Origin: Candidatus Omnitrophota bacterium
GTDB taxonomy: Bacteria; Omnitrophota; Omnitrophia; Omnitrophales; Aquincolibacteriaceae
Assembly: GCA_043732705.1 (NCBI GenBank)
Contig: JAYTHE010000003.1
Location: forward strand, 10,352 to 74,351
Length of the DNA: 64,000 nucleotides
Direction: 5' to 3'
In this document: positions 15,001 to 64,000 of the stretch, in pieces
Layout of the letters: each line of letters starts with the position of its first letter
Numbering within the stretch: position 1 is the stretch's first letter
Made by a program: the position numbers and the translations under genes
Notes under the pieces: generated by a model
What the model was told of the DNA's origin: nothing
The model's database searches: none
What the model saw: only the letters and a program-made list of their open reading frames with translations

Positions 15001-16791
15001 GTGGAAGCCTCCGGTCATCACAATCGCCTTGTCGGTATGAGCGAGCTCTGCTTCAATTTTTTGAAAGAAAACTTCTTCACGCCGGGTCGCGAAACCGTAG
15101 AAAGAGAAGGCGCTATCAAAAGCAGTTTGAACCTGCTTTTGATAAGGTGTCTGGATTCCCGCCTGCGCGGGAATGACAGAACTTTGTTCTTTGTTCTTTG
15201 TTCCTTGTTCGGAAAGGCTATCAGCCTTTGAGTTATGGTTTTGACTTTTAACCTTTAAGCTTTGACCTGAAAGTGATTTCACTCGTTCAAAAAACTTTTG
15301 TGGTTCGAGTTGATCTTTTTGTGAAATCACTTTCTGCCATTCGTCGCGGCTTAACTCGAGATTTAATAATTTTCTGACTAATTCCGCATCACGAAAAAGG
15401 GCAATCAACTCCGACCCTGTCCACATCGGATGTGCACAACCTTGTACACATCCGATGTGGACAGGGTTGTGTTCGTTTTGATCGAGCAGTTTGTCAAAAA
15501 GCTTTCTGATTTCAGCAAACAGTGAATTTGGCTCGACCTCGTAACGTAAAATTAAATATCCTGCTTGCAGCGCAAAATTCGGATAATCAGAAAATTTCAA
15601 GCCCTTCGGCCCGGCCTCTTCAACCAGCTTCTCAATAAAAAAGCGTGGCAGCGATTCTGTCTTTCCAGAAGAAGCTTTGATGGTATTGAGATTGATGTGC
15701 TGTTCATCGAAGAGTTCGAGTTTTTGAATGAGTTCGTTGCGAACTCCTTTCTTTTTCATCCACTCAATGATTTGTTTTCTTTCAATCTCAGCGGCTTGTT
15801 TGGCTGTTATTTTCTGTTCGTCTAAGTCTGAAGGTTTTGGGCTATGGTTTTGACCTTTAAGCTTTAAGCTTTGGGCTCGCGGCTGCTTCAACTTCTCTTC
15901 CATGCTTTGCAAAACGAGCAGCCGCGTCAGCTGCGGCCATTCGATTTGCGACATAAGGCTATGGAGGTCCAAATCTAAATTTTCTTTCGCGAGCTTTGCA
16001 AGGCTTGAAACAAACGGAATAAATTCGCGATGGCCTTTTTCAAATTTCTTCCACTCGCTCAGAATATTGCGCTTTTGCGGTGGAAGCATTTTCGAAGCAA
16101 GTTTATCGAGCTCACTATCAAGGCCGTTTAAAAAGCGTTTCGTTTCTGTGTCACGGCTATAAACCGCTTTGAGCGCTTCATAATTTTTGCGGTACAAGTC
16201 TGCTTTTTCAATTCCAACGCCTTTGATTTCGTCTGTTGGGGACTGTCCCTGCATGGGGACTGTCCCCTGTGGTACTAAGGAACCATTGGGGTCAGTCCCG
16301 CACGCGGCTTGGGACAGACCCCGTTCCGAGCCCTCCAGCAAAAACCAATCGGCACCCGTGATCTGTCCGCGTTTGGCAAGTTCATCCCAAAGTTTTTTAT
16401 TTGTCTCCGCGTCAGGGAAAAGTTTTAAATATTCCGGATTGAGGTTCTCCGAGGCGCCTTCGACAAAAATGGTCTTGAATCCGTAGTTTTTATTCAGATA
16501 AACCATCAAGTCGCGAATCTTTTGCTGAGCTTCATAATTCGTATGCGCGTTTTGAATATGCAAAATCATTTTAGGATTGGGACGCGCAGGAGCTTCGTAG
16601 AAGTCTTCTACGCTCGCAAGTTCAGCCGGGATATCAATTTGCATCAGCTTGGGTGTTTCCGCTCGCGGAGACAAATCGATACGCATGCCCGCGTCAGCGA
16701 AGCATGTATTTATAGTGAAGAAAAAGACCAGGGCCGCGGCCGTAGTCTTCTTCAACACACTATTTATGTGATCAAGAGAAGTTTGTGTCAT
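3019..16791 (-). CDS. Giant secreted or membrane-anchored multidomain protein (4590 aa), giant protein 1.
   Basis: A continuous 13.8 kb ORF. The N-terminus MTQTSLDHINSVLKKTTAAALVFFFTINTCFADA looks like a signal peptide. The N-terminal module is shared with the other two giants (HIQNAH..., GGFHTDG at 14995..15015). It contains an HEALHH (HExxH) motif, an ATP-grasp-like stretch, the class-I SAM-methyltransferase motif IYDLGSGDGRVV, a CheY-like receiver-like segment RIMVVDD...LIVTDKDMP, several hydrophobic transmembrane segments and about 19 R-S-E-x-R motifs. Confidence 0.85.
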   Translation of the reverse strand: MTQTSLDHINSVLKKTTAAALVFFFTINTCFADAGMRIDLSPRAETPKLMQIDIPAELASVEDFYEAPARPNPKMILHIQNAHTNYEAQQKIRDLMVYLNKNYGFKTIFVEGASENLNPEYLKLFPDAETNKKLWDELAKRGQITGADWFLLEGSERGLSQAACGTDPNGSLVPQGTVPMQGQSPTDEIKGVGIEKADLYRKNYEALKAVYSRDTETKRFLNGLDSELDKLASKMLPPQKRNILSEWKKFEKGHREFIPFVSSLAKLAKENLDLDLHSLMSQIEWPQLTRLLVLQSMEEKLKQPRAQSLKLKGQNHSPKPSDLDEQKITAKQAAEIERKQIIEWMKKKGVRNELIQKLELFDEQHINLNTIKASSGKTESLPRFFIEKLVEEAGPKGLKFSDYPNFALQAGYLILRYEVEPNSLFAEIRKLFDKLLDQNEHNPVHIGCVQGCAHPMWTGSELIALFRDAELVRKLLNLELSRDEWQKVISQKDQLEPQKFFERVKSLSGQSLKVKSQNHNSKADSLSEQGTKNKEQSSVIPAQAGIQTPYQKQVQTAFDSAFSFYGFATRREEVFFQKIEAELAHTDKAIVMTGGFHTDGLKTLFREHDISYGTLTPRLTQVENSNLYREVMLGHSSASEASLASGISSNSSRDTLHDVRDTGSPSPTVEIITRSESRAAQEAQGANEALIRGGIENALLGIEGMSRAKAEGAAKEYMDKITRSESRDQKIAEIEPNESPMDGVVYAENEWDALVDEPLLESVKILFRKNIETTNTSANRKDIQGRDPDLPPHALIRFNKETLSEKNREILMNFNSAAPAWSYGRVQVRETYLGIDLMIPISAETRVGELSDFASVLAEQFELQELHWNRYTLEDLRSKYLSQEASIAYFEQSGWVYDAVTEFFYGSEEQKANAKRWESVHSKIRSEMRKQELLDEIRSHFGQTPFLKIISGNNFDQKVLNAAFFMMETSLNPTQWRRAWVSVNTDPRAILFGKASRVPDEVEQFINKSSRKEEKEYHLIDLLGRYLANILVEKNNAFISDKAWVPPVLPEVNMVTNGYLDLASGVVVSDFIYSLPPNRKVVFNDSNHFIAGLLKETAAISEMKNVEIEERDLLDVVRDPSPYEVIRLKNVWYYEPRISPKVTSADVAVEFWRNLASKILPEGRLIIEFADTHESDTAFAPIYHQYLAPLLRQGWKIWQNSEPDPQSHLGGKIRRMIFTKPRSESRNFGGQLPAISSQLKSPTTARKPLIADVVRSESRRLITADDLITRLTESRVFILAHESEGKKNGAEWRDATEYDVKFGVESWLDKGVGDEVFRNAAAKLRVHYFLDSQKYFDSDQPVWRMEFKARSESRADEKANNFLESLRTFISMYERQLKALPGFGADPDINKIHREVKGGLLSELLKNSKFENDVDRAAAIYAHRAEISEILRAWPSIEAIDPDVNFTIAVEALSRPLADGHWPFLGMPESLDSGVYVFSDGSRIQKDDKDAYAKATPAQLAGIGRYELQHPEGRSEMRKEVGLRARSESRRELKTDTFDYGREQWRVAEQALIELINTGKYRDAYAQFEELDRKFSLATSEFVLGAQRDLRRLETVSETPKAAGQISKLKTDVIRRIIRLNPYREPKSAEDGDTGRSEFRINITGVKHYMALVEAEAVAAARLDPEKWTNLSGIEIQKHLYAEALSAGLLLADVASSKNEPAVEAKQPPENVTAAYAAVLDVHVRWVNQKLKSYFKGAANKIDISQIGVWRSLDDINGDYDIRNGEIRIREEVMLTRDAKKVRSVLLHEALHHSFDYYNSTINEAMTEFFTKEIMGTDYVHSSKYMDYYAALEIFLGAQEGGDVVLEALKQSYLKKTMVPLFEALQVFSADEHEQLTLMLILNEFDWFQHEGHFVDGYVVPVIMKYLFYSFEATLKYNQKARENFSHGLPFETGQEKLLADLTALRKQVDLTKDKALYLEKDYENPGFENFLDTFALAHNLSKLFEAHADLTPPAGTAFGDARLETLGSRALGLGPEMARSEMRKQGESIEKVSSAEKLKWPEPLVFDFEPGSKERQLKLSAFLKKQGFPTLAALLKRFEVPAGTPEGVNPEIMLEFHLDDRTKSELRLKSMLKNFKNVKTLKNWDSYIEARRARRRSDGTEVKNGLPQLVQVNQIVIRLQKPQSLKNIKSAERIFQRVPGSKPVVMSLKDFLSKGGKLNDEGRDELRSIGVAANLKEPGNHRSENRSISIPTALAFVVIGVAGVASALAAVFAAFPWITTLGVLTGILGLLRAGKFFVDRRLAASGQGAPNSLFQLMLAVFQTGLAPLRFAMPAGRQESRKIESPEAEDRRLESVGEFNSLESKVARSEMRQNPISLQNLFNVLFTKLGVREMMKGAPIEGVKFFAGIQAPQQLAKRESDVFKVLKRQLIPGENLLNFKSLAREIVSGNRKLPLVFKPNGGAGGEGIFFIEREDADHLKVSMAYQPEKDVSRRIDWATIIPQAIEKIPGVAVTRLPDQGLLEIKIETHSYENAANALYTIWEKISSSLNDAGMIEEMLDLFKVEKEGRPRSLETRYFISLNPHNGEIEIKTGVPSDLIQDFSFTRIGGNAMFANRKGNEVRGAEKTYDVYAPFGMQAEEVNIFKQKVNSDIKLLTDYILLRLKKIVGEENIHQLPQDARLRVTLDVFWMKPDAVTLGFPRLAPNEIQIESNLALSDYLNAKPLKFNPVPLIPSVKRSEMRTLADLLSQRLSAGAELEFIDLDTGAGAFPPEFEKYLRDRGYKVKGWKATEPYPDEATPINENVRKRIIKANAQFESEFLELKKHPVEIVTINNIETAPGELANRALELLKNPGGILLVTVESNDVIDSRQNGIMAAIQNAGFDVSIQDLPADYPEYSSFVKASKLIIAVPKTARSLPRRQAGEMRTIVIDGPSAPLTSEFYVDGDIWDKLAVDQDRIMYILKQGGNFSNGRAHTVGDWDDHRTVILPLIRPVEIEGRKYESAKIIGVLISADKDIPPLDFRANSQSEVLLAPRDGVIHWIDIPPHPAGSSEAIYAESRFHGAKLAQKNKLLVAPPVGFGKFTNKNFSYRDKSGTHTIEVGYFIELLEGQDETSLYSMVAEKAAETKDSIELTDWLSLRLGEYAGSLRDLNAFAKHGQPTNNNFVYENGRPRLKDYEGTTALSELSPDDRLAYLIKNFESLIFSIMIFQKMLENPYDSPKFGSVESGRRLELKEMLGKKFPEIFSSYFRNADVGNFSGHYFSWAGLPQLYMDLNQTILKEGNDLKSSRHEIVELFRREFDAELAAPTQPAVRRSEIRNRRGFLGQIVTAGTIALAGPLEAIAKLTTPELKMAPANMLDPAKLKKIKSPNVLKILNEAPEVVPKQIVRLTKDQEAQQKETNRFSPAEARKILNEILDPIFNEMNIAEEEKENKRESLIRLGQIIVANESGYWLKNQRIKNFIEQFIAVGWGQIETGKEGSRVGQDHLFTWFYYNNFKGSDIRSTVLNHLHSEIAEGLGLKADEIKELVDTLKAQAPNNETKAMDIIGPWLAKKILNNEKLDLTFMMTLVFRQIWKNSKDDASFLANIPDLVGDEKDPLNAAKIEARALNFYANHYRIKIIRAPKNETPEAATKREKAQAKIDADNSKKTRVAVAMLRRSNFSKTAESKLFVAAEVFPEPQAAEPVLAKTLFEEFSRLPLILAGIAAVVVALSGREKRSIQRGKSAGIAFILSMSASVFILMGLAVTAIWQSDQPIDLTPLYFNAIISMSLLAGFLGFKKLSRFQSKSRSEMRDVKEQKKAELGKRIDAFASVLNEQINSKLPDGWGALEDQLNELAKLAKEINPEPINYGQAVVQEEAYFARTPLRTVAAILNELQLSAEDTIYDLGSGDGRVVWLSGLLTQAGAAKGVERDDALFELSKKIIEALKKIAEEKRIHLKEMAIWKGDFQDIDEATTQRPNPFKDGTVFYVFRPNMDRSFGVMMRQLRATGAERVIRVVAVGVFEDELGENFTVEKKIGQNIIILRSTSAAESSKVDDGQQNRSENRIATAEDRAKSRGNPKVAVRSEIRSDALDNLKSFLIQVVNNHYDVARHLEKNSPVYQVLMMIVKSRLAHLVFSIEMTTEEKIVGFKTLGNEFEALSDKIMQLGVQSGAGQIYEEFLIELGEHIAKISALEPDKEMVQKPDEAKSPRNRIMVVDDKQQNGEVVADILRMIVGDDHVTLIVGQDAAEQADKHLQKRFQEYSLIVTDKDMPPGGGENVGEGEEGWALIEKWMKMDEKLSFILNTGDLTDEIKAKAGALGIIGAFGKGMKMFEFLENAVQVAKEKANRSELRSQISGIEKIQLGFNPDALKRSEARGIFKLIPVLLAWGIFNFGSKEANADTLKARQAIQISTIDEYAQIVALRSENGNVIDAIRRSDIASEEHANTALILDKLPTEEEFLRDVVPVLEAKPNHKILILAAANQNWKMSESSKKYSGRIKFEILGSADKAQRVLKDAAARFFGGAEYGLVGSEDKLNIFPADFFDKSNVKGVSTFDRADLDSVAPDKRALVLNLQATKFSEFSGSRQLEGFEENKPIGTIKRYKMTRAGFLGMAGKILQILQTLQIVSSAA
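3950..4295 (-). other. CheY-like receiver domain-like segment inside giant protein 1.
   Basis: SPRNRIMVVDDKQQNGEVVADILRMIV...SLIVTDKDMPPGGG resembles a response-regulator receiver, with an acidic pair and a phospho-acceptor Asp before M-P. Confidence 0.45.
5100..5230 (-). other. Class-I SAM-dependent methyltransferase motif region inside giant protein 1.
   Basis: EDTIYDLGSGDGRVV is encoded at 5181..5219 (motif I, D/ExGxGxG). Downstream are GVERD and KGDFQD. Confidence 0.55.
11406..11439 (-). other. HExxH zinc-metallopeptidase-like motif (VLLHEALHHSFD) inside giant protein 1.
   Basis: The reverse complement of 11406..11439 translates as V L L H E A L H H S F D. The motif alone is weak evidence for a peptidase. 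Confidence 0.4.
15154..15178. repeat. Family-A palindromic repeat inserted in-frame in giant gene 1.
   Basis: ggattcccgcctgcgcgggaatgac translates in-frame as …VIPAQAGIQ…. Confidence 0.75.
15230..15269. repeat. Family-C repeat half-copy, in-frame in giant gene 1.
   Basis: gagttatggttttgacttttaacctttaagctttgacctg translates as …SQSLKVKSQNHNSKA… A second copy, gggctatggttttgacctttaagctttaagctttgggct at 15838..15877, translates as …AQSLKLKGQNHSPKP…. Confidence 0.6.
15414..15471. repeat. Family-B palindromic element (core TGTACACATCGGATGTGTACA / CACATCGGATGTG arms), in-frame in giant gene 1.
   Basis: Perfect inverted arms ccctgtccacatcggatgtg … cacatccgatgtggacaggg. It translates as …NPVHIGCVQGCAHPMWTG…. 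Confidence 0.7.
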
Positions 16792-16943: not shown

Positions 16944-17837
16944 TTAATGCCGTTTACGGGCTTTGCGGGATCGGCGGACAGGTTTTTTACGGAACGGTTT
17001 TTTGGTCTGGGGAGGAGTCCATTTTCTTCTCAATGTATTCTTAGGTTCAGTTGTATAAGGAATAAAATTACGGAGTTTGGTAATGCTCGTTTCCAGCTCT
17101 GGCGTCAAAGGCGCTTCCACTTTTAGCTGCTGCTGCGTTACGGGATGTTCAAAAGCGAGGCTGGCCGCGTGCAGAAAAAGTCTTTTGAGCCCGATTAATT
17201 TTTGTAACGAGCGGTTCCATTTAAAATCACCGTATAATTTATCGCCCGCTACGGGATGTCCATGCGACGCGCATTGAATCCGGATTTGATGCAATTTTCC
17301 AGTCACGAGTTTCGCGGCAATCAAGCTCATGCGTGAGCCTTCAAAATATTCCAAAACCGTATAGCCCATCACTGCGTTCACGGGCGCATCTTTCTGGACG
17401 CTCGCCCGGCGCATTTTATTATGCCGACGCACACCGAGATGATCGTTCCATTTTCCTTGCGGCGGAGAAACACGCCCGCCGCCAACCACGACATGATAAA
17501 TTTTCTGCAAAGAATGCTTTTCAAACATGAGGCGCAGCTTTGTCGCTACCGCCGCGGATTTGGCCGCGAGTAAAATTCCGGAAGCCTCTTGGTCAAGGCG
17601 ATGCAAAAGCCAAATTACGCCTTTGGGAGTTTCGAAAGTACGCTGAACAAAATCATAATGTCCAAGAAATGCGGCGTGACCCTTTTGGCCCTCGAGTTTT
17701 TTCTTTTCATTGATCGGATTGGGATGCGAAAGAATACCGGAAGGCTTATTGATTAAAATAAGATGGTCGTCTTCGTAAACAATCGGAAACTCGGTATATT
17801 GAGGCATAGGAAATTTTAACATAGGCCGGAGGCCCAA
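16944..17837 (-). CDS. RluA-family pseudouridine synthase.
   Basis: The catalytic motif HRLDQEASGILLAAKS (HRLD...SG) is present. The N-terminal region is S4-like and the C-terminal tail is basic. Confidence 0.8.
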   Translation of the reverse strand: MGLRPMLKFPMPQYTEFPIVYEDDHLILINKPSGILSHPNPINEKKKLEGQKGHAAFLGHYDFVQRTFETPKGVIWLLHRLDQEASGILLAAKSAAVATKLRLMFEKHSLQKIYHVVVGGGRVSPPQGKWNDHLGVRRHNKMRRASVQKDAPVNAVMGYTVLEYFEGSRMSLIAAKLVTGKLHQIRIQCASHGHPVAGDKLYGDFKWNRSLQKLIGLKRLFLHAASLAFEHPVTQQQLKVEAPLTPELETSITKLRNFIPYTTEPKNTLRRKWTPPQTKKPFRKKPVRRSRKARKRH

Positions 17838-17919
17838 GCCCCGAGGGTTTTAAGTTTTAAGCTAACAGCTAACTACTCAATAACCTCGTGCCTCCGGTCT
17901 CCGAACTCCGAACTAGTTT

Positions 17920-46900: not shown

Positions 46901-48601
46901 GAATGATCGTTCACGAGCAATCGCACCTTGATAAAACTGAATGGCATTGTCGTAAGTTTTTTCTAAATCAGAAAAAGAACCGCTACGCACACTCCCGGTG
47001 ATAGGCTGAGGCTCAATACCGGAAGTGTTCTGAAAGACCGCTTCTAACTGCTGCACAACCTCAGATGGTTTGAAGCTGTTTTCTGTCGTTGGTCTTCGGT
47101 CGTCAGTCGTTAGTCGTTTTTCTATTTTTTTAAATTCCGAGCGGCTTAGTTCCAAATGAAGCAATTTATGAAGCAGAATATATTTTTCAAGCACCTTGAT
47201 AAGTTTTATACCTTTATCTATTTCCAAATGGTCATTCCCGCGAGGGCGGGAATCTAGCCCTAAATGTTTCTGGATTCCCGCCTTCGCGGGAATGACAGAG
47301 GCCGCTTCTTTCACAATCTGCGCGTGCATTTTCTCGGCTTCTTTTTGCAATTCAACGGCATCCATTTCTCCACTCAAAATAATTTGAGCAATCCATGCTT
47401 TCAGTTCCGGCCACTTATCCATCGAAAAATTGTTTGGCAAATAAACCGCAAGCCGCTCAAAAACTTCGCGGGCGGCAGAAAAATCAGCGGGAGCTTCGGG
47501 GTCAATTCCGCGGGTTTTAGCTTTTTCGATTAGATTGTCGATTTCTATGAGAATCGCCTTAAGCGACGAAGCACCACGCTGCGCCCCCTCGGGGGATGCC
47601 ACGGGCAACCCCCGAGGAGTCTGCGCTTCAAGTCGTCGGTCTCTAGTCTCTGGTCTCTGGTCCAGACTTTTTAAAGTTTCTAAAAAGTCTAGTTTTTGTT
47701 TTTCTATTTTTGAAAAGTCGGCCGCACGCGCCAAATTTTTAAGATGGTAATACCGCACAAGCATCGGAAATTCGATTTGTTCGTGAATATCCGCAAGATC
47801 ACGCTTCCACACAGAATCAGCATATTGTTGAATCGCATTGAACCATTCCGCTGATTCCACCGCGTCAAGGCGGCTCCTAGCATAAGCTTCCAGATATTTT
47901 TTAAGTGAAGGACTGAGAAAATGAATCGCGGCATCTTGCCAGCGCGAAAAGAAAGATCTTAAAAAAGCCCGGCTTTCCGTAAGTGCGGAATCAACTTTGC
48001 GGTATTGCTCGACATTGTCCCAGTAAGCCGCAGCGTCTTCGATTCCATACCCTTTTACATTTTTTGATTTCATTAGAAATGTTTCCGCGCCGGTTAAGTC
48101 GCCATCGCGCATCCACGCATTACGTTCCGTCGCAGTCAGTTTTTTACCCCCGGGGAAAAAATGATGCAGGTCAGGATCGAGCTCTCCCGTCCCGCCTTCT
48201 AAATATATTTCATGAATCCCACCTTGAGATTGCATTTCGCTAAGCATGTTCTGAATATTCTGCTGAGCATCCAAAACAGCGTGCGCATCTTGAATGTGAA
48301 CCAGAGTACCGTGTGAATTTTTCGGAACAACTTTCTCGGTCACCGTACCAAACCGGGCGCTTGGTTTCCATGTTTCAAAAACTGAGACTTCCGGCGATGA
48401 CTCCGCAAAGGAAAGCACCGCTGCTTGCGCTGTGTCCGGAGTTAACACCTGCGTGAGCACATATAGAGGTATCAGCGCGATGGCCCCAAATTTACGGTAT
48501 TTGCGAGGAAGATTAAACATTTTATAGAAGATAACCGACTTACTTTTTTTTTCAAGTGCTACACAAGCAGGAAAGTGAACATTTTTTAAATAGAAAACCA
48601 C
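34922..48601 (-). CDS. Giant secreted multidomain protein (4559 aa, or 4532 aa from the internal Met at 48520), giant protein 3.
   Basis: A continuous 13.7 kb ORF. The internal Met gives MFNLPRKYRKFGAIALIPLYVLTQVLTPDTAQA, a better signal peptide than the first Met. It shares the IQDAH / GGFHSDG N-terminal module. It carries a PPP-family metallophosphatase domain, a PEP-utilizers swivel domain plus a PPDK_N ATP-grasp domain, and about 12 R-S-E-x-R motifs. The C-terminal tail is conserved with giant protein 1. Confidence 0.85.
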   Translation of the reverse strand: MVFYLKNVHFPACVALEKKSKSVIFYKMFNLPRKYRKFGAIALIPLYVLTQVLTPDTAQAAVLSFAESSPEVSVFETWKPSARFGTVTEKVVPKNSHGTLVHIQDAHAVLDAQQNIQNMLSEMQSQGGIHEIYLEGGTGELDPDLHHFFPGGKKLTATERNAWMRDGDLTGAETFLMKSKNVKGYGIEDAAAYWDNVEQYRKVDSALTESRAFLRSFFSRWQDAAIHFLSPSLKKYLEAYARSRLDAVESAEWFNAIQQYADSVWKRDLADIHEQIEFPMLVRYYHLKNLARAADFSKIEKQKLDFLETLKSLDQRPETRDRRLEAQTPRGLPVASPEGAQRGASSLKAILIEIDNLIEKAKTRGIDPEAPADFSAAREVFERLAVYLPNNFSMDKWPELKAWIAQIILSGEMDAVELQKEAEKMHAQIVKEAASVIPAKAGIQKHLGLDSRPRGNDHLEIDKGIKLIKVLEKYILLHKLLHLELSRSEFKKIEKRLTTDDRRPTTENSFKPSEVVQQLEAVFQNTSGIEPQPITGSVRSGSFSDLEKTYDNAIQFYQGAIARERSFTKNLNNYFSESFATSHGPRQRRIEVIVTGGFHSDGMREFAQKNQYAYVEVMPRISKITEDDRAHYRRALLGEGSVPSLPAGRLDATRGEQSRTKQRGLTSMVSNDSHVTAALATSAGIFKGRSELRMRFNNAQLAPLNQVRSEMRDLKEAGQPQAPGFGASLIARMPRVELLNKKLASVSGFISAIFTWLVLTAAIIFYFPRQFWKAKRDGVWPYHSWNSYFRYLKARQAGSLEKTELNKMPALRFQVSDSVRAVRLRDIIAMALSRGVSLKDLKLLTENDPVRVVAGRKKKRSDLGSVRVSNGRFFEIGGTLDLDKFILAGDDVYVLLPSVGGTTFAVKAEFTSGEVYLPRTAIHYAEDLPSSARSETRGIAKNNVISREITLLQKAHFVLPRALHAKLRLELGARNETISSQTEVRLVSLDDPTKFFSINIDQKKNLFYFRYKPKDLPAIVSKMNIYNPDGKMKQNTPLYFQPAFRAFYDDLFGIPLAAGIGRHQKIKEHLDALSRVNRKLIRKISDSKRDGYVQFLGRLYLPGYYMKHPQDFEMIVDRATQPRWVMLRYKKNPELYFILEYFDTYLKTEKEGEKIRIKITDEAGKPLRKGYQLRLAEASGEFRAFDEQVDKKVTANYGEDETVEVNHDDAGFKFRSASPLKVEYYDGHRWSRSRQANARLKAIPTLIVDSSIQNGAAIAIQFDNPKKPKRITVQGITDQKGQPVWFNLKGYYNLSVVLRLAEEGLLPGLQISDALKQVVAAYEYRESKVQPKLRNYEFDVRSRRLIPKGFINPEEARSFRAEVRNEKAIPSRSENRITTVSTKNLNPGQELELLEDVKKRLENEHVTLTGAGDHFIIEATKRSELRVDDAIAEIQSWNREHGADSLKEDTTDPFQTRREIQARKIYHQYGLEQVSIEERAKYVRVVFQDIAGPVVQFIDGWIDALSPEERASHEPLSPAFFQKISSKMADLEHRYTILHNQFIRTAGDLIFDLDPTEKNILELRGLADEITKELDGLEKDGKPGRGNIPVVAAMQDLHGGTRRALALLAFVYGLPADSYARIHILNDLKEQLDEKGLSLEKFLGRIIGFSDAPDRGPDPVGSIELIDEMVHTSIARFLLGNHDEYRALSALGIHKLFPDIDLYSEEHTGHHVGFWLREAFHHADWGDVELDQLNQRRFNKIVKDINQRLRTFGAAESFEFIDLAKVRQDLKPELKRIKAHNSKLRQKWQGAMAAEKEAALLAKRAPNPIPKPAYLPNINIFEETSKMIRGKMDAYQRQIVTLRETYADLPGFENFTPLTLGNYDTDREIVYSAINQLRNFRLFYLDIYNNLHLHNMIPIDEQGQFNVKYRGQTGLAALELMTRDIRTYFEGLSDADIEKYITGSKSERMAFRRALWNVLGPAFEEITSWYSDKLLHAKVDMVKKFADHGQIGWLMGHTAGSFVDRSPNGFIIMGHNEQSKFPNKQMSPFVLFPSFGSGILNIDGEMSPGYEDLGIILTYNLRDEKGYVTGLKLWGFPDKKDPHPDVIQDLTLVGLEKLRQKAIAQIAALGGELSSGTVPTEAIEEKQKQKIAWEKLEASLREQIPLFEKLTDGKTFLRWTLFKTTKELERQLTARLAKDVSSDVKRQHFEQMLRNTTVEMSKLSNPLFETTAPTPRSEARSAPQNPKASMRSESRDFPKVLANFSADISLVIHSAASEKLRLVLGSEHVHEDNEIEVKDILPANYPIQFKGEFQKLTHNADRLDQFRKYHNEVLIKLASVSRWKQAEADEFMRNFDMLVKIFLSFEGMTSADLVGVRERWTDLEAQYQLVRSGRGGSITVFFDRMRGIWTAAESEKGLSKVDTLNKFINWMHSYVEHSVLKINHDGKWSFLDLDHVATGEPSLATKILPEAILKNLKSPGVTQSNDLSILLKGTNFWMRKTLGVHRMQAYANLVPLEMGGNSEFVYFEGGAKVGNHLRMKLIARVFKKLGFRVVAPAEDEWSFEKMVLRASLDHKQNVSDLSVLMRNTKIAMDMLLRIVNTDQALRDLAESYSKDELDQIIEAWSQKIILTAGKVTPIDIPMNYTKSSAGEDDTAAVPQKIVVSKGKFWESPEPYDDAQNVEFRENGKKIHSALQSTLAALGLEAMPEYDSAVFGQIFIETFFNSVVSRTVNAGRIIQGAHGYEINPHYIASSPIRNFVETWQDLSKRENLIQMGQMVSNTTFRLKHIGLIGQAMVYSAEVSLITGTIEVVLVRSADKKSLLAGGIWSQGQLLTPDAASILLSRSNIEIHVSKSQPGDYARLADNLEMEFRTPAEGSIYTGEAIQGFGFLPGTATGPIRFSEGAQEGDILYVSTLNEGNINLLRMANGVISEVGNKLDHFNTRAKHFGKPRVQVSHAVLKPSSGGGAALEISGKIVDRAENFQGYPLIQAVTDGENIRIEEGDLVTINGTTGMIHWLGKDPVVLEAYHTISSIEKAATASELEKQIQKLIEIISRAVQAKNILLVKFILRQIIFDGTLLSPAHKRGSLAQLFQSGEGKYFEQLKNLLSPADDELREGIKAYLKTLYRHAKGQILRDFSRAREAVGVVARLDQIYYEIRRLRTEVAAFQAVQSFLGEIVLGEPGIDLNSKQESVFGEIQKTIRHLKAQLEERVSEIIEQNKKHPFNQETYFLLARILERVAAFEKLGIRLEKINQKQVAKLKKDAVQIQKQRRARRDALRKKRLIALSDTGIDYYEITGNKGANLGWLNHFVDWYNGQKKNKSMRLSVALGYAVTAHAFNEFLDQTVMGQGPKAQTLRAYVKSVLADRLLSIKEKSQKIEEAFLAQELPQEMSEEISRVVSGGLWAVRSSTKLEDTPRSSAAGLFATNLGATTPALVEKYLRQTWASLYGEPSLSYLWDADPADFFDLLKDEGAVIQQLISADTSGVISSVEISSDDRGFMVINAGYGLGQAIVDADQDADAIVVDKVTKIPQIFPGEKRKKTIVDGKGATMNVETTPEERNTVSLSRAQIAELTDITLALEEWFGYVVQVEFAIKDSVIYLLQIRPIPGFKVPKKERPALAKWAGMIASQEPFKKQRSEARSNQKLEVAESHVGRMSRENFNGESFSHENFNWKSVLGLAAAGLTGLGLALSGAWIPALFISAAAVYFGASFIPPSQGSLTRSGYPVFDSIRGAIDHLKIGFRAASNSPSRSEIRTPAESVKYLYGQWEDLERQNVIIQAKVAYPGVLTNEEGFNQIWKRTSGYGKGVEFSLEHSATDLRQEFQRLSQKGDITPDDLGGLLGKVESHKRRLDVLSAHLMVTDVMTAERRNQSYVIFEAAQAYTNFWKKVITELQQHLKMPADKLYARQGIQAAGFVFELMLGGRMDLAGENERLIEELEAELERVTNDNLPKNTLKILQDLINRRWEFTAFAENPEEMRARHAYLDELKTFAAQTYIMVLSSEQKLSTAQASLAPLLNIMIKIHDYAFAASNDWPTDWNHDRQGLKESLGYVLEQMQKKYRSESRDDTGSLSQRAEIRVQTMLEGSKRIFDESDHWIKTEDLNGNLVDDLIWEAGKIVRVRTRMADGSFIVLDSNGDGVVHSAEIEEGPVFIDWQPGINLNDIQHIPFAEITNEPSPKGSAPSVFRIMALLLMDQKKTSVAYWGNEGAVQAPTDRLFNSLAETMLPQAEVSIDDLSHFVNMQRRGFAQTSGLADYMADELGVLRMKFQIYPRDVKWVPHPFERIFFQTQKGLASIDVRGGKAQRLYYDDEVYLAPQFLFGTLDFHAQRHTIREEDGVFKAYVEDEHVLTVDKTGKVLFERSEMRLEKKVEVKATARSEHRAIEPVVVPKNKIIALKIMAARLFADGILSVKDAVYYLKHHEEFLAVLPLLVSTEQKKQNLAHLTGMLGVDIQVKDGIVLSPALVREGFLAAAKEVFEGVPFALIASGSEKIKAVQWIQTNKLTERIFVAENIREARVWLTRHGVTRIQGMALAGEEALPDFDELIRFTTGQLQKFYDRAGILGEVQHLARIFSVFASAA
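38000..38800 (-). other. PPDK_N / PEP-synthase-type ATP-grasp (PEP/pyruvate-binding) domain inside giant protein 3.
   Basis: ITGNKGANLGWL matches GGKGANL. WAVRSSTKLEDTPRSSAAGLF matches the [20 protein letters not shown] signature. SGVISSVEI...VINAGYGLGQAIVDAD matches SGV.FT.DP...NA.WGLGE.VVsG. Confidence 0.65.
39700..39900 (-). other. PEP-utilizing-enzyme mobile (swivel phospho-His) domain-like segment inside giant protein 3.
   Basis: GNKLDHFNTRAKHFGKPRVQVSH aligns with the GGRTSHAAIVARELGIPAVVG signature, with the His conserved. It is followed by DGENIRIEEGDLVTINGTTGMI, which resembles kdGdlvtvDGstGeV. Confidence 0.5.
43400..43900 (-). other. PPP-family (ApaH/PrpA-like) metallophosphatase domain inside giant protein 3.
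   Basis: Motifs appear in the canonical order: AAMQDLHGG (DxHG), FSDAPDRGPDPVGSIE (GDxxDRGpd) and LLGNHDEYR (GNH[DE]). GNHDE is encoded at about 43546..43560. Confidence 0.6.
47231..47296. repeat. Two family-A palindromic repeats in opposite orientation, in-frame in giant gene 3.
   Basis: gtcattcccgcgagggcgggaatc (47231..47254) and ggattcccgccttcgcgggaatgac (47272..47296). They translate as …VIPAKAGIQKHLGLDSRPRGNDH…. Confidence 0.75.
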
Positions 48602-52427: not shown

Positions 52428-52452
52428 GGATCCCCGCCTACGCGGGGATGAC
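52428..52452. repeat. Family-A palindromic repeat, intergenic between the ABC ATPase and the SBP-permease.
   Basis: ggatccccgcctacgcggggatgac. Confidence 0.75.
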
Positions 52453-52483: not shown

Positions 52484-53983
52484 TCAATTTGAAATGACAT
52501 GATTTTTCTTTTCAAGATTGCGCGACCAAAGCGAAAGCGGAAAACTCATTAAAAAATAAAGAAATGCGGTCGCAAGCCCTAATTCCAGAAAACGGTATGT
52601 CGTCGTCGCGGCTGTCGTATAGGCGCGCGTCAGCTCCATCACGGTAATAATCGAAACAAGCGAGGTATCTTTAAACAATGCGATAAAATCATTGGTCGAG
52701 GGCGGTAAAACTGTGCGCACAGCCTGCGGGATTAAAACAAAACGTAAAGTCTGCCAGCCATTCATACCGAGCGAACGCGCCGCCTCTTCCTGTCCTTTTG
52801 GAATAGAGAGCAAACCGGCTCGATAAATTTCAGCTTCATAGGCTGCGTAATTCATGCCGAGGCCGATAATCGCCGCGGCGAAGGCATTGAGCTGAATTCC
52901 TAAATTGGGTAAACCATAATACAAAAGATAAAGCTGGATCAAAAGCGGCGTACCACGAATGACCTCGATATAGCCGTAACAAAGCGCGCGCGGCAACCTG
53001 CCGCCGTACATCTTTCCAACAGCAAGCAATGCCCCTAATAGAACAGCAAACGTCATGGCAAGAAAAGAAAGCATGATGGTCATCACGGCTCCCTTTAAAA
53101 GCAACGTCCCGAATTTTAGAAGCGGATCGGATTCATGCGCGCGAGCCACATCCCAGGCTTTTGGATCAGCAAGTTTGTCCTGCTTTTCATTCCACATATT
53201 CCACTTGAGATAAATACGGCGCAATTCACCGGATCGAATCAGCGCGATAAAAGCTTGGTTGATTTGCTGTTTGAGTTGCGGTGAATCTTTGCGGATACCT
53301 GCGGCATAAATCCCCTCGCCCGCCAAATCTGATAAATTTTTAAATCTTGGATTTGCCCCCGCATAAAAAACTGCGATCGGAACATCCATAAGCACCGCTT
53401 CGGTACGCCCGATTTCAAGGTCGCGATAAGCTTCCACCGGTGACGGATAACCGATGACGGTAATTTTTCCGTCTTCGTCTAAAATTTTTTGCGCGAGCGT
53501 GCCGGAGAGCGTGCCCACTTTCTTGCCTTGTAAATCAGCAAAAGTCAGAATGTTTTTGTTTTCGGAGCGAACCGTGATTTGCTCGGAAAAATAATAATAC
53601 GGAATAGAAAAATCGATCACCTGCAAACGGTCCTGAGTCACTTCAAGGCCGTTAATGACAACGTCAAAGTCATCACGTAAAAGCGTGGGCACAAGCTGGT
53701 CCCATTGGACACTGACAAATTTGGGTTTGAGCTTCATTTGTTTCGCAAGCGCTTCGACAATTTCAATTTCAAATCCGATTAAATTATCGGGTTTTTCTTT
53801 GTCCGGAAAAACATACGGCGCACCGCCGGCCGCATCGCCGCCCCAACGCAATTCACCTGTCTTCTGAACGCGGTCCCAGGCCTCACCAGCAAACAAAGTC
53901 GTCGGCAGACAAAGCACCAATAAAAGCAGAATCTTAAAATTAATTTTCATAGCGTCGTAAATTATAGCCGAAAAAAAGACCAA
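52484..53983 (-). CDS. Fused periplasmic substrate-binding protein and permease of a polar amino-acid ABC transporter.
   Basis: The N-terminal ~260 aa resemble SBP_bac_3 (signal peptide, GELRWGGDAAGGAPYVF). The C-terminal permease has the EAA loop EEAARSLGMNGWQTLRFVLIPQA. The true start may be the internal Met MKINFKILLLLV. Confidence 0.85.
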   Translation of the reverse strand: MVFFSAIIYDAMKINFKILLLLVLCLPTTLFAGEAWDRVQKTGELRWGGDAAGGAPYVFPDKEKPDNLIGFEIEIVEALAKQMKLKPKFVSVQWDQLVPTLLRDDFDVVINGLEVTQDRLQVIDFSIPYYYFSEQITVRSENKNILTFADLQGKKVGTLSGTLAQKILDEDGKITVIGYPSPVEAYRDLEIGRTEAVLMDVPIAVFYAGANPRFKNLSDLAGEGIYAAGIRKDSPQLKQQINQAFIALIRSGELRRIYLKWNMWNEKQDKLADPKAWDVARAHESDPLLKFGTLLLKGAVMTIMLSFLAMTFAVLLGALLAVGKMYGGRLPRALCYGYIEVIRGTPLLIQLYLLYYGLPNLGIQLNAFAAAIIGLGMNYAAYEAEIYRAGLLSIPKGQEEAARSLGMNGWQTLRFVLIPQAVRTVLPPSTNDFIALFKDTSLVSIITVMELTRAYTTAATTTYRFLELGLATAFLYFLMSFPLSLWSRNLEKKNHVISN

Positions 53984-54090
53984 AGGTTAAAAGCTAAATC
54001 TTAAAACCATAGGCCAAAGCCCAAAATTATCCGGGCAGCTGAAGGTTTTGGGTTGTGGTTTTGACCTTTGAGTTTTAAGCTTTTACCTAT
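53983..54090. repeat. Family-C MITE-like element with imperfect ~40-bp terminal inverted repeats (GGTTTTGGG[CT]T[AG]TGGTTTTGACCTTTAAGCTTTAAGCTTT).
   Basis: Left arm aaaagctaaatcttaaaaccataggccaaagcccaaaa and right arm ttttgggttgtggttttgacctttgagttttaagcttttacc are near reverse complements of each other. Related half-copies sit in-frame in giant gene 1 at 15230..15269 and 15838..15877, each encoding SLKLKGQNHSPKP-like peptides. Confidence 0.6.
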
Positions 54091-54102
54091 TAGAATGCCC
54101 CA

Positions 54103-57495: not shown

Positions 57496-58380
57496 TTACC
57501 ATCTTCCGCTTGCTCCTCCACCGCCAAAACTTCCACCACCACCCGAAAATCCCCCGCCACCAGAATAACCGCCCCCACCTCCGCCACGACTCGACCAGCT
57601 CGATCCTCCACGGCTCGTAAGTAATGCTCGAAGAATCAGCCACAATATCGCGAACGTAAAAAACCATTCCCAAAAGCTATACGCACCTGTATATCCTCGA
57701 TGCCCATTCCAATAAGTGCTATATCTAACTAAATCAATAATAAGAATAACTCCGATAATCAAGAGAATCATTTTCAGAAGAGCTCCCCCCCCATTGTTTT
57801 GAGCCGCGGCATTGGCCTGATATTCGCCTTTAGTCGCAGACAAAATAGCTCTCACACCACTTATAATTCCATTTTCAAATTCTCCCGCGCGGAAATAAGG
57901 CGTTACTTCGTTACGAATAATTTGCGATGACAACGCATCCGTTAAAACCCCTTCAAGCCCATAGCCCGCTTCAATGCGCATTTGGTGATCATCTTTAAAA
58001 ATTAAAAAGAGCACGCCATTATTGCGATCTTTTTGACCGATTTTCCATTGCTGCGCGATACGTATCGAAATATCTTCGAGCGACCCGCCCTCCATGCTTG
58101 GAAAAGTGGCCACGACGATTTGATTTGAAGTTTGGCGCTCAAACTCACGCAAGTCGGCGTCTAATTGCAATTTGGCCTGAGGTGAAAGTAAAGCTGCGCG
58201 GTCAGAGACGTAGCCGTCGGGCTTTTCGGGGATTTGGAAATCGGCCCAGGCGGAACAAGAAAGGCTTATAAAAAATGCAGCTGCAATAAATGATAAAAAA
58301 ATCCATTTATTGTTCCGCCTGTCCCGGACTTGATCCGGGATCTTTTTAGATTCCCGCCTACGCGGGAATGATAAAAACAT
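57496..58380 (-). CDS. TPM-domain membrane protein with a Gly-rich C-terminal tail. The annotated N-terminus is repeat-derived, so the true start probably lies downstream.
   Basis: YVSDRAALLSPQAKLQLDADLREFERQTSNQIVVATFPSMEGG…GVLFLIFKDDHQMRIEAGYGLEG matches a TPM domain. It has a transmembrane helix and a (GGGG[YF]S)n tail. The first 10 codons (MFLSFPRRRESK) translate a family-A palindromic repeat. Confidence 0.7.
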   Translation of the reverse strand: MFLSFPRRRESKKIPDQVRDRRNNKWIFLSFIAAAFFISLSCSAWADFQIPEKPDGYVSDRAALLSPQAKLQLDADLREFERQTSNQIVVATFPSMEGGSLEDISIRIAQQWKIGQKDRNNGVLFLIFKDDHQMRIEAGYGLEGVLTDALSSQIIRNEVTPYFRAGEFENGIISGVRAILSATKGEYQANAAAQNNGGGALLKMILLIIGVILIIDLVRYSTYWNGHRGYTGAYSFWEWFFTFAILWLILRALLTSRGGSSWSSRGGGGGGYSGGGGFSGGGGSFGGGGASGRW

Positions 58381-58410
58381 AAACTAGATTCCCGCCTGCG
58401 CGGGAATGAC
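58348..58410. repeat. Two tandem family-A palindromic repeats between the TPM gene and lemA.
   Basis: agattcccgcctacgcgggaatgat (58348..58372) and agattcccgcctgcgcgggaatgac (58386..58410). Confidence 0.8.
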
Positions 58411-62720: not shown

Positions 62721-64000
62721 CTACTTAATCTTTGCGAGCTGTTCTTGGCAAGAAATAAAAAGTTTTCCGGCATCTTCGAGTTTAGCTTTTTCGCCGTCAA
62801 TGACTTGCTTCGGCGCGCGTGCTACAAAGTTTTCATTCGAAAGTTTTTTTGACATCGTTTCAATCCACGGCTTGAGTTCAGCGATTTTCTTTTCGAGTTT
62901 CTTTTTTTCTTCTGCTGGGTCAACCAAGCCCGTAGTTGAAACTAGCACGTCAAAATCCGCGTAAGGCACAACGGAGTAACCATCTTGATTCGAAAAAGAC
63001 GCCACCACTTCTAATTTTTCAAGCTTGGCTAAGGAGCAAATTTGGGAACTTAGCCCGCTTAAGATCGCTGCCTTGCCTTTTTCTTTGGCATGAACCACCG
63101 CAGCCATTTTTTGGGAAGGCGGAGCCCCGATACGCACGCGGATATCTCTTAGTCCCGCAACCGATCTCTGCAAAATATCCATTTCGCTTTCAGCTTTTTC
63201 ATCTGTAAAAACGCAAACCCTGTACACATCGGATGTGTCACCCTGCACACATCCGATGTGTACAGGGTTTGCAGCCCAACCAACATGCATGATGGTTTCC
63301 GGCCATTGATCTTTATCCTTAGCGAGATCGCGAAAACGCTGCCAAATCTCTTCGGTTGTAAAAGGCATAAATGGATGTAAAAGTCTCAAAATTTTTTCAA
63401 GCACATAAAATAAAACCGCTTGCGTGTCTTTCTTGGTCGCTTCATTTTGCAGATAGGGTTTCGCAAGTTCGATAAACCAATCGCAGAAATCATTCCATAC
63501 AAAATGATAAAGCTCGGTGGAGGCCTGGCTTAAGCCAAATTGCTCCAATTCTTTTTCGATCAATTTTATTTTCTTTTCTAAGGTAGAAAGAATCCAACGA
63601 TGCGCTACGGGCAGCTTTTTAATATCCAAATGAAGTTCCGATGACCCGTCTGTAAAACCTTCCAACCCCATTAAAACGAAACGCGATGCATTCCAAAGTT
63701 TGTTCGTGAAATTACGACCAACTTCAAATTTTTCGCGGGAAAGATAAACATCCTGTGCCGAAAGCATGACAAGCGACCAGCGCAAAGCGTCCGCGCCCAT
63801 CTCTTCGATGATTTCCAGCGGATCAATGGAATTCCCGAGCGACTTCGACATTTTACGGCCCTGATCATCGCGCACGGTACCATGTAGATAAATACGGTTA
63901 AACGGTACTTCTCCCAAAAATTCACAGCCCGCCATAATCATGCGCGCGACCCAGAAAAAAATAATCTCCGGTGCCGTGATTAAATCTGATCCGGGATAAA
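62721..64000 (-). CDS. valS: Valyl-tRNA synthetase, C-terminal part. The N-terminus runs off the window end.
   Basis: The KMSKS loop (RKMSKSLGNSIDP) and the C-terminal coiled-coil tail are present. The frame stays open upstream of the annotated Met and reads …EIIFFWVARMIMAG, the class-I anticodon-binding motif. An in-frame palindromic element insertion is visible at 63215..63270. Confidence 0.9.
   Translation of the reverse strand, partial: YPGSDLITAPEIIFFWVARMIMAGCEFLGEVPFNRIYLHGTVRDDQGRKMSKSLGNSIDPLEIIEEMGADALRWSLVMLSAQDVYLSREKFEVGRNFTNKLWNASRFVLMGLEGFTDGSSELHLDIKKLPVAHRWILSTLEKKIKLIEKELEQFGLSQASTELYHFVWNDFCDWFIELAKPYLQNEATKKDTQAVLFYVLEKILRLLHPFMPFTTEEIWQRFRDLAKDKDQWPETIMHVGWAANPVHIGCVQGDTSDVYRVCVFTDEKAESEMDILQRSVAGLRDIRVRIGAPPSQKMAAVVHAKEKGKAAILSGLSSQICSLAKLEKLEVVASFSNQDGYSVVPYADFDVLVSTTGLVDPAEEKKKLEKKIAELKPWIETMSKKLSNENFVARAPKQVIDGEKAKLEDAGKLFISCQEQLAKIK
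63215..63270. repeat. Family-B palindromic element inserted in-frame within valS.
   Basis: aaaccctgtacacatcggatgtg … cacatccgatgtgtacagggttt, perfect 23-bp arms. It translates as …ANPVHIGCVQGDTSDVYRVCVFT… inside the ValRS C-terminal region. Confidence 0.75.

Follow-up and report, generated by a model that had tools for sequence, protein, structure and literature searches.

In a handful of well-studied genera (Neisseria, Rickettsia), small dispersed repeats are known that rewire promoters and also turn into coding sequence. The Correia elements of Neisseria can create or modify promoters; they have true terminal inverted repeats (TIRs) of 26 bp, a TA target duplication and an IHF site, and occur in one genus only. 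Rickettsia palindromic elements (RPEs) are whole palindromes of 100–150 bp inserted in many ordinary genes, and the repetitive extragenic palindromes (REPs) of Pseudomonas and of the E. coli bacterial interspersed mosaic elements (BIMEs) are 20–40-nt palindromes with a GTAG/CGTC head that RAYT transposases mobilise and that are species- and RAYT-specific. Here we describe a 112-bp imperfect inverted repeat at positions 53978–54089 of a 64,000-nt segment (hereafter the window) of contig JAYTHE010000003.1 from a Candidatus Omnitrophota bacterium. A first-pass annotation had called it a miniature inverted-repeat transposable element (MITE)-like sequence with TIRs of ~40 bp; it consists of two copies of one non-coding arm of ~54 nt, placed back to back and facing outward.

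A pair of outward-facing arms and its dispersed family

Matches to a hidden Markov model (HMM) of the arm family resolve the element into arms of 51–53 nt with an 8-nt spacer (Table 1), and a repeat finder places arms of 40 nt each at 53982–54021 and 54044–54083, 73% complementary and 22 nt apart; the inverted repeat proposed in the first-pass annotation at 53983–54090 is thus present by computation. The element folds at −39.1 kcal/mol (z = −3.6 relative to shuffles) and its other strand at −33.5 kcal/mol (z = −2.9). A degenerate 30-nt pattern occurs at exactly four places in the window, the two intergenic arms and two positions inside a giant gene (giant gene 1), and nowhere in 100 shuffles, giving a total of four arms in the 64 kb, one pair and two in-gene copies.

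The in-gene copies are specifically related to the intergenic arms. By blastn, 54039–54083 in the right arm (arm A) matches 15828–15872 (arm B) at 91% over 45 nt (41/45, E = 8e-12), and 54047–54088 matches 15227–15268 (arm C) at 83% over 42 nt (E = 1e-7), with HMM scores of ~40 bits for both; the reverse complement of the left arm (arm D) matches 15877–15833 at 78% over 45 nt (E = 4e-6) and is 77–78% identical at both in-gene places. Arms A and B have in common a subfamily-specific inner stretch, CTGAAGGTTTTGGG, which departs from the family consensus, unrelated arms being ~63% identical. The two copies that had been noted at 15230–15269 and 15838–15877, read in frame as SLK(L/V)K(G/S)QNH..., are confirmed, with the translations SLKLKGQNHSPKP (arm B) and SLKVKSQNHNSKA (arm C), as is the proposal that a small dispersed repeat adds coding sequence to the giant gene. 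A weaker copy suspected at 17836–17872 did not survive: the only matches there are of 15–19 nt (E ≥ 1.8), no HMM match is obtained at E ≤ 1, and the stretch is a different mosaic of 7-nt tandem units between GC-richer inverted arms.

Comparison with homologous giant genes identifies the in-gene arms as lineage-specific insertions. The arm B and C segments are missing from 11 aligned homologues, arm C lying within a ~40-residue insertion that is missing from most of them, and the arm B segment is also missing from the orthologs in loci L086 and L087. The L086 ortholog (60% identity by tblastn) has no in-gene arm; the L087 ortholog (55% best-segment identity by tblastn, 65% over aligned columns) has four, one of them at a linker common to the window gene. 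At this linker, arm C and the L087 arm are 88% identical in nucleotides and 69% in amino acids, and 14 of 16 third codon positions are identical compared with 41% gene-wide (P = 1.7e-4); another of the L087 in-gene arms resembles arm C still more (90%). The likeness reflects either nucleotide-level constraint or a recent independent insertion from a conserved source; the latter would amount to selection at the level of the element, which would also account for the cross-phylum conservation described below. All in-gene arms are single and antisense to the gene (model start 6–11, end 53–54) and use the arm frame most often free of stop codons. This SLKLK... frame is fully open in just 22 of 48 arms, many others having stops within or beside the arm, and translation of the intergenic copy was rejected on this ground.

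At ~16200–16300 (residues ~160–192), giant gene 1 also has a 31-residue insertion, RGLSQAACGTDPNGSLVPQGTVPMQGQSPTDE, that is missing from all 11 aligned homologues. L087 has at this site a TGTDPNG module followed by the arm-derived SLKVKGQNHSSKA, and module plus arm recurs in L087 as a composite unit at two sites.

The arm consensus, of ~54 nt with sharp ends, is AGTTTTGARTTTTRARY-TRTGG-TTTTNAGYTTTNAGYTTTAAGCTTTNAGYTT, in which seven to eight degenerate T-tract heptamers (approximately RRYTTTN) flank the TRTGG core (in register, GGTTTTG GGTTGTG GTTTTGA CCTTTGA GTTTTAA GCTTTTA). The units within an arm differ, their order is conserved and the third (ARYTRTG) is unique; TRTGG and TAAGCT are conserved at a spacing of 17 nt. 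The pattern TNTGGTTTTNANNTTTNNNNTTTAANCTTT, run against a single genome from each species, was matched at 78 genome loci; these come from at least 8 phyla, with hosts labelled Planctomycetota, Omnitrophota, Atribacterota, Patescibacteria, Chloroflexota, Bdellovibrionales, Saganbacteria and Gammaproteobacteria, and one Atribacteria locus carries its own 16S gene. Among 48 non-redundant copies with a TRTGG core, the positions left free by the pattern show strong conservation between −17 and +36 and are random outside this interval; because the search pattern itself prescribed TRTGG and TTTAANCTTT, part of their conservation in the seed set is built in. Other Omnitrophota loci of 8 kb hold several arms (five in L041, four in L042, three in L075). 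The arm family is conserved across phyla beyond what selfish repeats normally show. An origin in phages was rejected, the viral contig collection containing a single match.

The labels of some hosts may be affected by assembly: 120 nt around the arm in L002 (ASZN01000258, 'Candidatus Poribacteria WGA-3G') are identical to the Atribacteria single-cell contig L069 and differ at two positions from the Atribacterota MAG (metagenome-assembled genome) contig L077, which suggests contamination or a mislabelled assembly.

The described systems each resemble the element in part. With REP doublets, or REPINs (cf. PMC3733652), it shares inverted short repeats with a variable spacer, the occurrence of singlets, an intergenic position, the absence of target-site duplications (TSDs) and long persistence at orthologous sites. 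The palindromic repeat with a GTAG/CGTC head is not part of it: the arms are 54 nt long, built of T-tract heptamers and common to several phyla, they are not individually palindromic, and neither an internal palindrome nor such a head is present in their consensus. No RAYT gene was found, no search aimed at one having been made. REPIN arms would be expected to stay mutually complementary, and these arms do not. Correia elements are similar in being inverted repeats of ~100–150 bp near gene starts whose ends give outward −35/−10-like sequences, but here no TSD is seen, the arms are built of heptamers and several phyla are involved. As with RPEs, a dispersed repeat of intergenic DNA occurs in frame in genes, with homologous genes lacking it, and adds a peptide without destroying the protein; in contrast to RPEs, the copies within genes are 45-nt single arms only, all of them antisense and situated in variable linkers of giant proteins.

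Heptamer repeats offer a second set of comparisons. The TAACTGA repeats of Beggiatoaceae, proposed as 5'-leader translation enhancers (PMC4679880), and the cyanobacterial short tandemly repeated repetitive (STRR) sequences share with the arms a 7-nt periodicity and a position a few nucleotides upstream of starts lacking a Shine-Dalgarno sequence; occasional occurrence in open reading frames (ORFs) and a patchy cross-phylum distribution suggesting transfer are further likenesses (PMC4679880). Those repeats consist of a variable number of one identical unit, whereas the arm is a fixed-length mosaic that usually has an inverted partner. A simple head-to-tail heptanucleotide repeat of the STRR or TAACTGA type was rejected on account of the differing units in conserved order, and Tandem Repeats Finder reports only 2.6–3.1 unit copies within the in-gene arms (15247, 15855) and nothing at 53978–54089. 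The TTTTGAT heptads of Vibrio cholerae ctxAB (10.1101/2021.05.14.444153) and UP elements likewise place T-tract heptads directly upstream of a core promoter, and TTTTGAT is close to the TTTTGAG, TTTTGAC and TTTTAAG of the arm; the ctx heptads form a local tandem array in one species, bound by ToxR/H-NS, and not dispersed inverted pairs. The arm family is distinct from REPINs, Correia elements, RPEs and heptamer repeats in its heptamer-mosaic arms, their independent evolution and their cross-phylum spread. It appears to be undescribed so far: no description of it was found in the literature searched by sequence strings and topics. Rfam, searched with the window region and with 26 loci under both gathering and E-value cutoffs, has nothing relevant; the only matches, all sub-threshold, were of an AU-rich hairpin to plant microRNA precursors. 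A likeness of GTTTTA-AGCTATGG-TTTTGA to type II CRISPR repeats was judged coincidental, given its low-complexity units and lack of cas context.

Predicted promoters and conservation of the intergenic pair

The element lies in a 152-nt intergenic gap between divergent genes for a fused solute-binding protein (SBP)/permease and a DUF2237 protein, and fills exactly the interval separating two conserved −10 boxes. In all five orthologous loci, including L083, where the arms are missing, TAGAAT or TAAGAT stands 6–7 nt ahead of the DUF2237 ATG; TATAAT or TATATT stands 7–10 nt ahead of the SBP ATG, also in 5/5. Both genes lack a Shine-Dalgarno sequence, and because the −10 boxes are only 6–10 nt from the ATG, their transcription is predicted to be leaderless or near-leaderless. 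Promoter scans of the window, L082 (TTGAGT-17-TAGAAT and TTCTCA-16-TATAAT) and L081 (TTGACC-16-TAAGAT and TTGAAC-16-TATTAT) each give one outward promoter-like site per direction with its −35 hexamer in the arm, compared with 0.2–0.5 per region in shuffles. Heptamers such as TTGAGT, TTGACC and TTAAGC resemble −35 boxes, so that an arm in effect presents −35-like hexamers every 7 nt. The empty L083 site has its own TTGTCC-17-TATAAT for the SBP gene.

The L083 region (9936–10000) is itself a very compact bidirectional promoter region, with −10 boxes ~38 nt apart and CTTGTT-type heptamers; its TTGTCC overlaps an opposite-strand GGGACA, and either could act as a −35 hexamer.

Elsewhere in the family, a TANNNT hexamer is found 5–9 nt ahead of the ATG in 14 of 30 arm-adjacent genes (6.1 ± 2.1 in shuffles), and two arms end 5–7 nt ahead of tRNA-Leu genes. 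Judged from sequence, promoter use is supported for the window locus and its orthologs, and not for the family as a whole. Arms as general gene-start elements were rejected, the orientation bias of unpaired arms (8 versus 3) not being significant (p = 0.23). The spacing of TRTGG and TAAGCT does not fit, by eye, a sigma-54, sigma-28 or extracytoplasmic function (ECF)-type promoter consensus, and a role as intrinsic terminator was rejected because the window pair lies between divergent gene starts and scans of the window, L087, L082, L081 and L083 gave no terminator-like site spanning the arms.

The arm pair at this site is present in the window, in L057 (Candidatus Omnitrophota MAG GFS_12873, 80% nucleotide identity across 2.4 kb), in L081 (88% amino-acid identity) and in L082 (84%); in L083 (77%) the intergenic region is 65 nt long and without arms, and more distant relatives of the locus have different gene neighbours. 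Presence/absence polymorphism is thus shown both at an orthologous intergenic site and at giant-gene linker sites. Relative to L057, the arms are 90–94% identical (A 92–94%, D 90%) and the whole intergenic region 88%, compared with 56% at third codon positions of the adjacent gene and ~57% in another nearby intergenic stretch; the element at this locus is under constraint and changes much more slowly than synonymous sites. Orthologous arms resemble each other (A–A' 94%, D–D' 90%) far more than the two arms of the pair do (A–D 65%), implying locus-specific conservation and not homogenisation toward a consensus.

Table 1. Positions of the arms, promoter-like sites, genes and further repeats in the window
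Feature	Position (nt)	Strand	Evidence
Left arm (arm D), T-rich forward arm aimed at SBP/permease gene	53978..54028	-	nhmmer model 2-52, 33.5 bits, E 1.4e-8
Spacer ATCCGGGC, 8 nt	54029..54036	.	gap separating the two HMM matches
Right arm (arm A), T-rich forward arm aimed at DUF2237 gene	54037..54089	+	nhmmer model 2-54, 40.4 bits, E 9.5e-11
In-gene arm B, antisense, read as (RAQ)SLKLKGQNHSPKP	15831..15877	+	nhmmer model 7-53, 41 bits
In-gene arm C, antisense, read as (GQ)SLKVKSQNHNSKA	15223..15269	+	nhmmer model 8-53, 40 bits
-35-like hexamer TTGAGT inside arm A	54068..54073	+	promoter scan: TTGAGT-17-TAGAAT, 9/12 matches; same pairing in L082
Predicted -10 box TAGAAT, 6 nt before DUF2237 ATG	54091..54096	+	promoter scan; TAGAAT/TAAGAT conserved in orthologs
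-35-like hexamer TTAACC inside arm D	53985..53990	-	promoter scan: TTAACC-18-TATAAT, 10/12 matches
Predicted -10 box TATAAT, 10 nt before SBP/permease ATG	53961..53966	-	promoter scan; TATAAT/TATATT conserved in orthologs
Fused solute-binding protein + ABC permease, 488 aa, signal peptide	52484..53950	-	Pfam SBP_bac_3 1e-31, BPD_transp_1 1e-24
DUF2237 protein, 122 aa	54103..54471	+	Pfam DUF2237 9e-55
Giant gene 1 (contains in-gene arms B and C), 4590 aa	3019..16791	-	ORF list
GGATTCCCGCCTGCGCGGGAATGAC copies	15153-15177, 47231-47255, 47272-47296, 52428-52452, 58348-58372, 58386-58410		
~25-nt unit ACCTTGTACACATCCGATGTGCACA, tandem/palindromic doublet	15414-15463, 63217-63261		
7-nt tandem arrays	10747-10773, 15182-15210, 17847-17861, 17899-17914, 23034-23048, 47099-47118, 47638-47662		

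Proposed mobility and co-option, and alternative explanations

Among adjacent arm pairs, 28 of 38 are in the (−,+) arrangement, that is A-rich arm, spacer, T-rich arm, and 1 of 38 is (+,−). Spacers in the other outward-facing pairs range from 0 to 57 nt, and unpaired strong arms (29) are as common as outward-facing pairs (28). Arms of one pair are no more alike than arms of different loci (63.3% versus 62.9%, permutation p = 0.37). For 27 aligned pairs, 72.8% of cells are paired, compared with 72.4 ± 0.7% when partners are re-dealt (164 of 500 shuffles as high or higher), and the covariation score is 0.176 compared with 0.171 in shuffles. Co-evolution of the arms as a hairpin or as TIRs was rejected on these null results, and neither a selected hairpin nor strict TIRs find support; the absence of within-pair excess identity and of covariation implies that arm complementarity is a by-product of placing family members back to back. 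The exception is one L087 pair, whose arms have 29 identical nucleotides and which appears to be young. Intergenic regions of all three kinds (divergent, co-directional and convergent) contain pairs, as expected of insertions and not of a dedicated regulatory site. Like MITEs, the element is small, non-coding (most arm frames contain stop codons) and dispersed in multiple copies, and to this extent the original MITE-like assignment stands; a reading of the ~40-bp arms as a co-evolving TIR pair is not supported, and by eye no TSD is seen beside them. The heptamer structure, the spread over several phyla and the location between two −10 boxes had escaped the first-pass annotation.

The explanation we favour, to which we would give about an even chance, is a dispersed MITE- or REPIN-like repeat that has been co-opted at this locus as promoter upstream DNA and elsewhere as an in-frame linker. 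The family would spread by copy-and-paste leaving no TSD, in a REPIN-like or non-classical MITE-like manner, with every arm evolving independently once inserted. A pair may have entered at a compact bidirectional promoter, landing between two −10 boxes that belong to divergent, leaderless or nearly leaderless genes, where the outer heptamers TTGAGT and TTAACC would now serve as the −35/upstream region of both promoters; such a role for the arm heptamers would account for their slower change relative to synonymous sites. Single arms would have been copied separately into variable giant-gene linkers, antisense, adding ~15 residues each (SLK(L/V)K(G/S)QNH...). Omnitrophota, Planctomycetota, Atribacterota and the candidate phyla radiation, among which the family occurs, are largely uncultured, and the family shows no classical transposon hallmarks; if real and active, it would help to explain where compact genomes obtain promoter DNA, show by what route giant genes expand and diversify at linkers, and suggest a possibly new mechanism of mobilisation. 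In practical terms, metagenome annotations acquire spurious small ORFs and peptide segments of low complexity from such arms.

Several observations weigh against co-option of a mobile repeat. By eye, no TSD flanks the window pair on its outer sides (AAAAAAAG / TTAGAATG), and none is apparent at in-gene arms B and C or at the L087 pair, whose flanks (TAGCTCA / AAACCTC) contain no direct repeat. Pfam searches detected no transposase in 21 window ORFs (a set that excludes giant gene 2, giant gene 3 and some of the small ORFs), and no autonomous parent element was found. In the sequence available, copies are few, ~95 kb of related Omnitrophota DNA holding none besides the orthologous pair. As to promoters, the 29 unpaired strong arms have a gene start ahead in 8 cases (plus two tRNA-Leu), behind in 3 (p = 0.23) and neither in 16; the distance from arm to −10 box varies from −3 to 15 nt in no fixed register, so the arm is not a fixed promoter; and a promoter scan of the L087 pair gave nothing at threshold. 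Conservation of 54 nt across phyla is also hard to account for without a conserved recognising factor, and no such factor was identified.

A stronger version, which we put forward as speculative and think unlikely, is that an undescribed copy-and-paste system, shared across phyla, recognises the arm as its unit. Single arms and back-to-back pairs would be copied, with no target duplication, either by a conserved enzyme or by a conserved DNA-binding factor that also uses them as portable promoter-upstream modules. Such a system would provide compact intergenic regions with new promoters, and giant genes with new in-frame linkers, across Omnitrophota, Planctomycetota, Atribacterota and Patescibacteria.

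Of the rival accounts, a classical MITE, i.e. a deletion derivative of an insertion sequence with TIRs bound by a transposase encoded elsewhere, moving whole and neutral at its sites, would be compatible with the sharp outer ends, the predominance of inverted arms (28/38), the young-looking L087 pair, the coexistence of filled and empty orthologous sites and the presence of pairs in all three intergenic types. We nevertheless find it doubtful: no copy inspected has a TSD and no scanned window ORF encodes a transposase, paired arms are no more alike than arms of different loci, single arms are as frequent as pairs and every in-gene copy is single, and the element is far better conserved than neutral sites. 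Cross-phylum nucleotide conservation of ~80% would, moreover, require very recent and very wide horizontal spread.

We consider it just as doubtful that the arms are an immobile, conserved cis-regulatory module, such as a promoter upstream element or a binding array for a conserved factor or alternative sigma factor. The 17-nt spacing of TRTGG and TAAGCT, the strong conservation at the orthologous locus, the arms 5–7 nt upstream of two tRNA-Leu genes and the abutting −10-like boxes in several phyla would all fit, and the TTTTGAT heptads upstream of the ctxAB promoter provide an analogue (10.1101/2021.05.14.444153). Against this, arms also occur antisense within coding sequence, pairs are found between convergent genes, and a single intergenic region in the 64 kb carries the element; unpaired arms show no significant orientation bias toward gene starts, arms keep no fixed distance to a −10 box or ATG, and the conservation of TRTGG and TTTAANCTTT is in part a product of the search pattern.

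An RNA-level function, either as an AU-rich hairpin (terminator, processing site or mRNA stabiliser) or as a U-rich 5'-leader translation enhancer, is improbable. The window element does fold better than shuffles on both strands (z = −3.6 and −2.9), co-directional pairs place the A-rich arm after a stop codon and the U-rich arm ahead of the next ATG, many arm-adjacent genes lack a Shine-Dalgarno sequence, and heptamer repeats near start codons are discussed as S1/Csp/CsrA sites in PMC4679880. Against this, pairing is at the level of re-dealt partners (72.8% versus 72.4%) and covariation at that of shuffles (0.176 versus 0.171), the window pair lies upstream of both conserved −10 boxes and is probably in neither mRNA, other arms lie directly upstream of tRNA genes, and neither an Rfam match nor a terminator-like site across the arms was obtained.

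It is very improbable that there is no family at all and that T-rich heptamer arrays arise independently by replication slippage, resembling one another through low complexity. Unrelated 7-nt tandem arrays do abound in the window (at 10747, 15182, 17847, 17899, 47099 and 47638, among others), some genome matches are plain tandem arrays (L007, L050, L012), and among long simple repeats of prokaryotes, heptanucleotide ones are reported to be the most frequent (Mrazek 2007, cited through PMC4679880). The account is largely refuted by the absence of pattern matches in window shuffles, by the build of the arm, whose units differ, keep a conserved order, include a unique third one (ARYTRTG) and stop sharply at −17 and +36, and by orthologous arms that keep their individual sequences (A–A' 94%, D–D' 90%, A–D 65%); arms A and B are, in addition, identical at 41 of 45 nt. 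That the intergenic copy derives from decayed coding sequence of the giant gene, its reverse strand still reading SLKLKGQNHNPKP in an open frame with three of four differences from arm B synonymous (third codon positions), can hardly be credited and is refuted by the homologue comparison and the family-wide frame survey: the giant-gene arms are insertions and not ancestral sequence, the frame is common to family members of unrelated phyla (fully open in 22/48 arms), and the third-position pattern has a chance probability of ~0.11.

Giant genes and other repeats of the window

The window is a bacterial chromosome segment of 45% GC that carries housekeeping genes as well as three giant ORFs (4590, 3366 and 4559 residues). 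A public sequencing run contains a 6-kb contig identical to part of it, and homologues of the N-terminal 700 residues of giant gene 1 are all labelled Omnitrophota (E as low as 1e-136). The three giant proteins have in common only an N-terminal domain of ~650 residues (20–29% mutual identity; window 14692–16791, with paralogs from 33083 and 48601 downward), which carries the motifs HIQ(N/D)AH...Y(E/D)AQ and TGGFH(T/S)(D/E)G. A Pfam scan of this domain gave no match; its motifs may point to a Tiki/TraB/ChaN-like fold.

At least two further intergenic repeat families are found in frame in giant genes. The 25-nt palindrome GGATTCCCGCCTGCGCGGGAATGAC has six copies in the window at up to 3 mismatches and none in shuffles; three are in frame in giant genes 1 and 3 (VIPAQAGIQ / DSRPRGND), and the others lie in or beside short intergenic regions, an intergenic-plus-giant-gene pattern like that of the arms. 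The doublet of the unit ACCTTGTACACATCCGATGTGCACA in giant gene 1 is read in frame as NPVHIGCVQGCAHPMWTGS, a segment missing from homologues; the other doublet is inside ORF 62721..63941, which Pfam matches as a C-terminal region of the Val-tRNA-ligase type (class I tRNA synthetase).

The intergenic region between the BipA/TypA and pseudouridine synthase genes (17823–17900) contains a GC-richer inverted repeat, AGGCCGGAGGCCCAAG / CTCGTGCCTCCGGTCT (81%), around GTTTTAA and GCTAACA units, with an ATG (17816–17814, minus strand) directly after the arm and in frame with the downstream ORF 16944..17837; its heptamer-mosaic architecture is like that of the element described here, and its sequence is unrelated. 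The units of the 7-nt tandem arrays in Table 1 are CCCGAGA, CTTTGTT, GTTTTAA, CTCCGAA, ATCGACA, GTCGTTA and GGTCTCT. Several of these arrays lie inside giant genes, in gene 1 at the same variable linker positions as arms B and C, and those of giant gene 3 at 47638 and 47099 are read as RPETRDRRLE and TTDDRRPTTEN.

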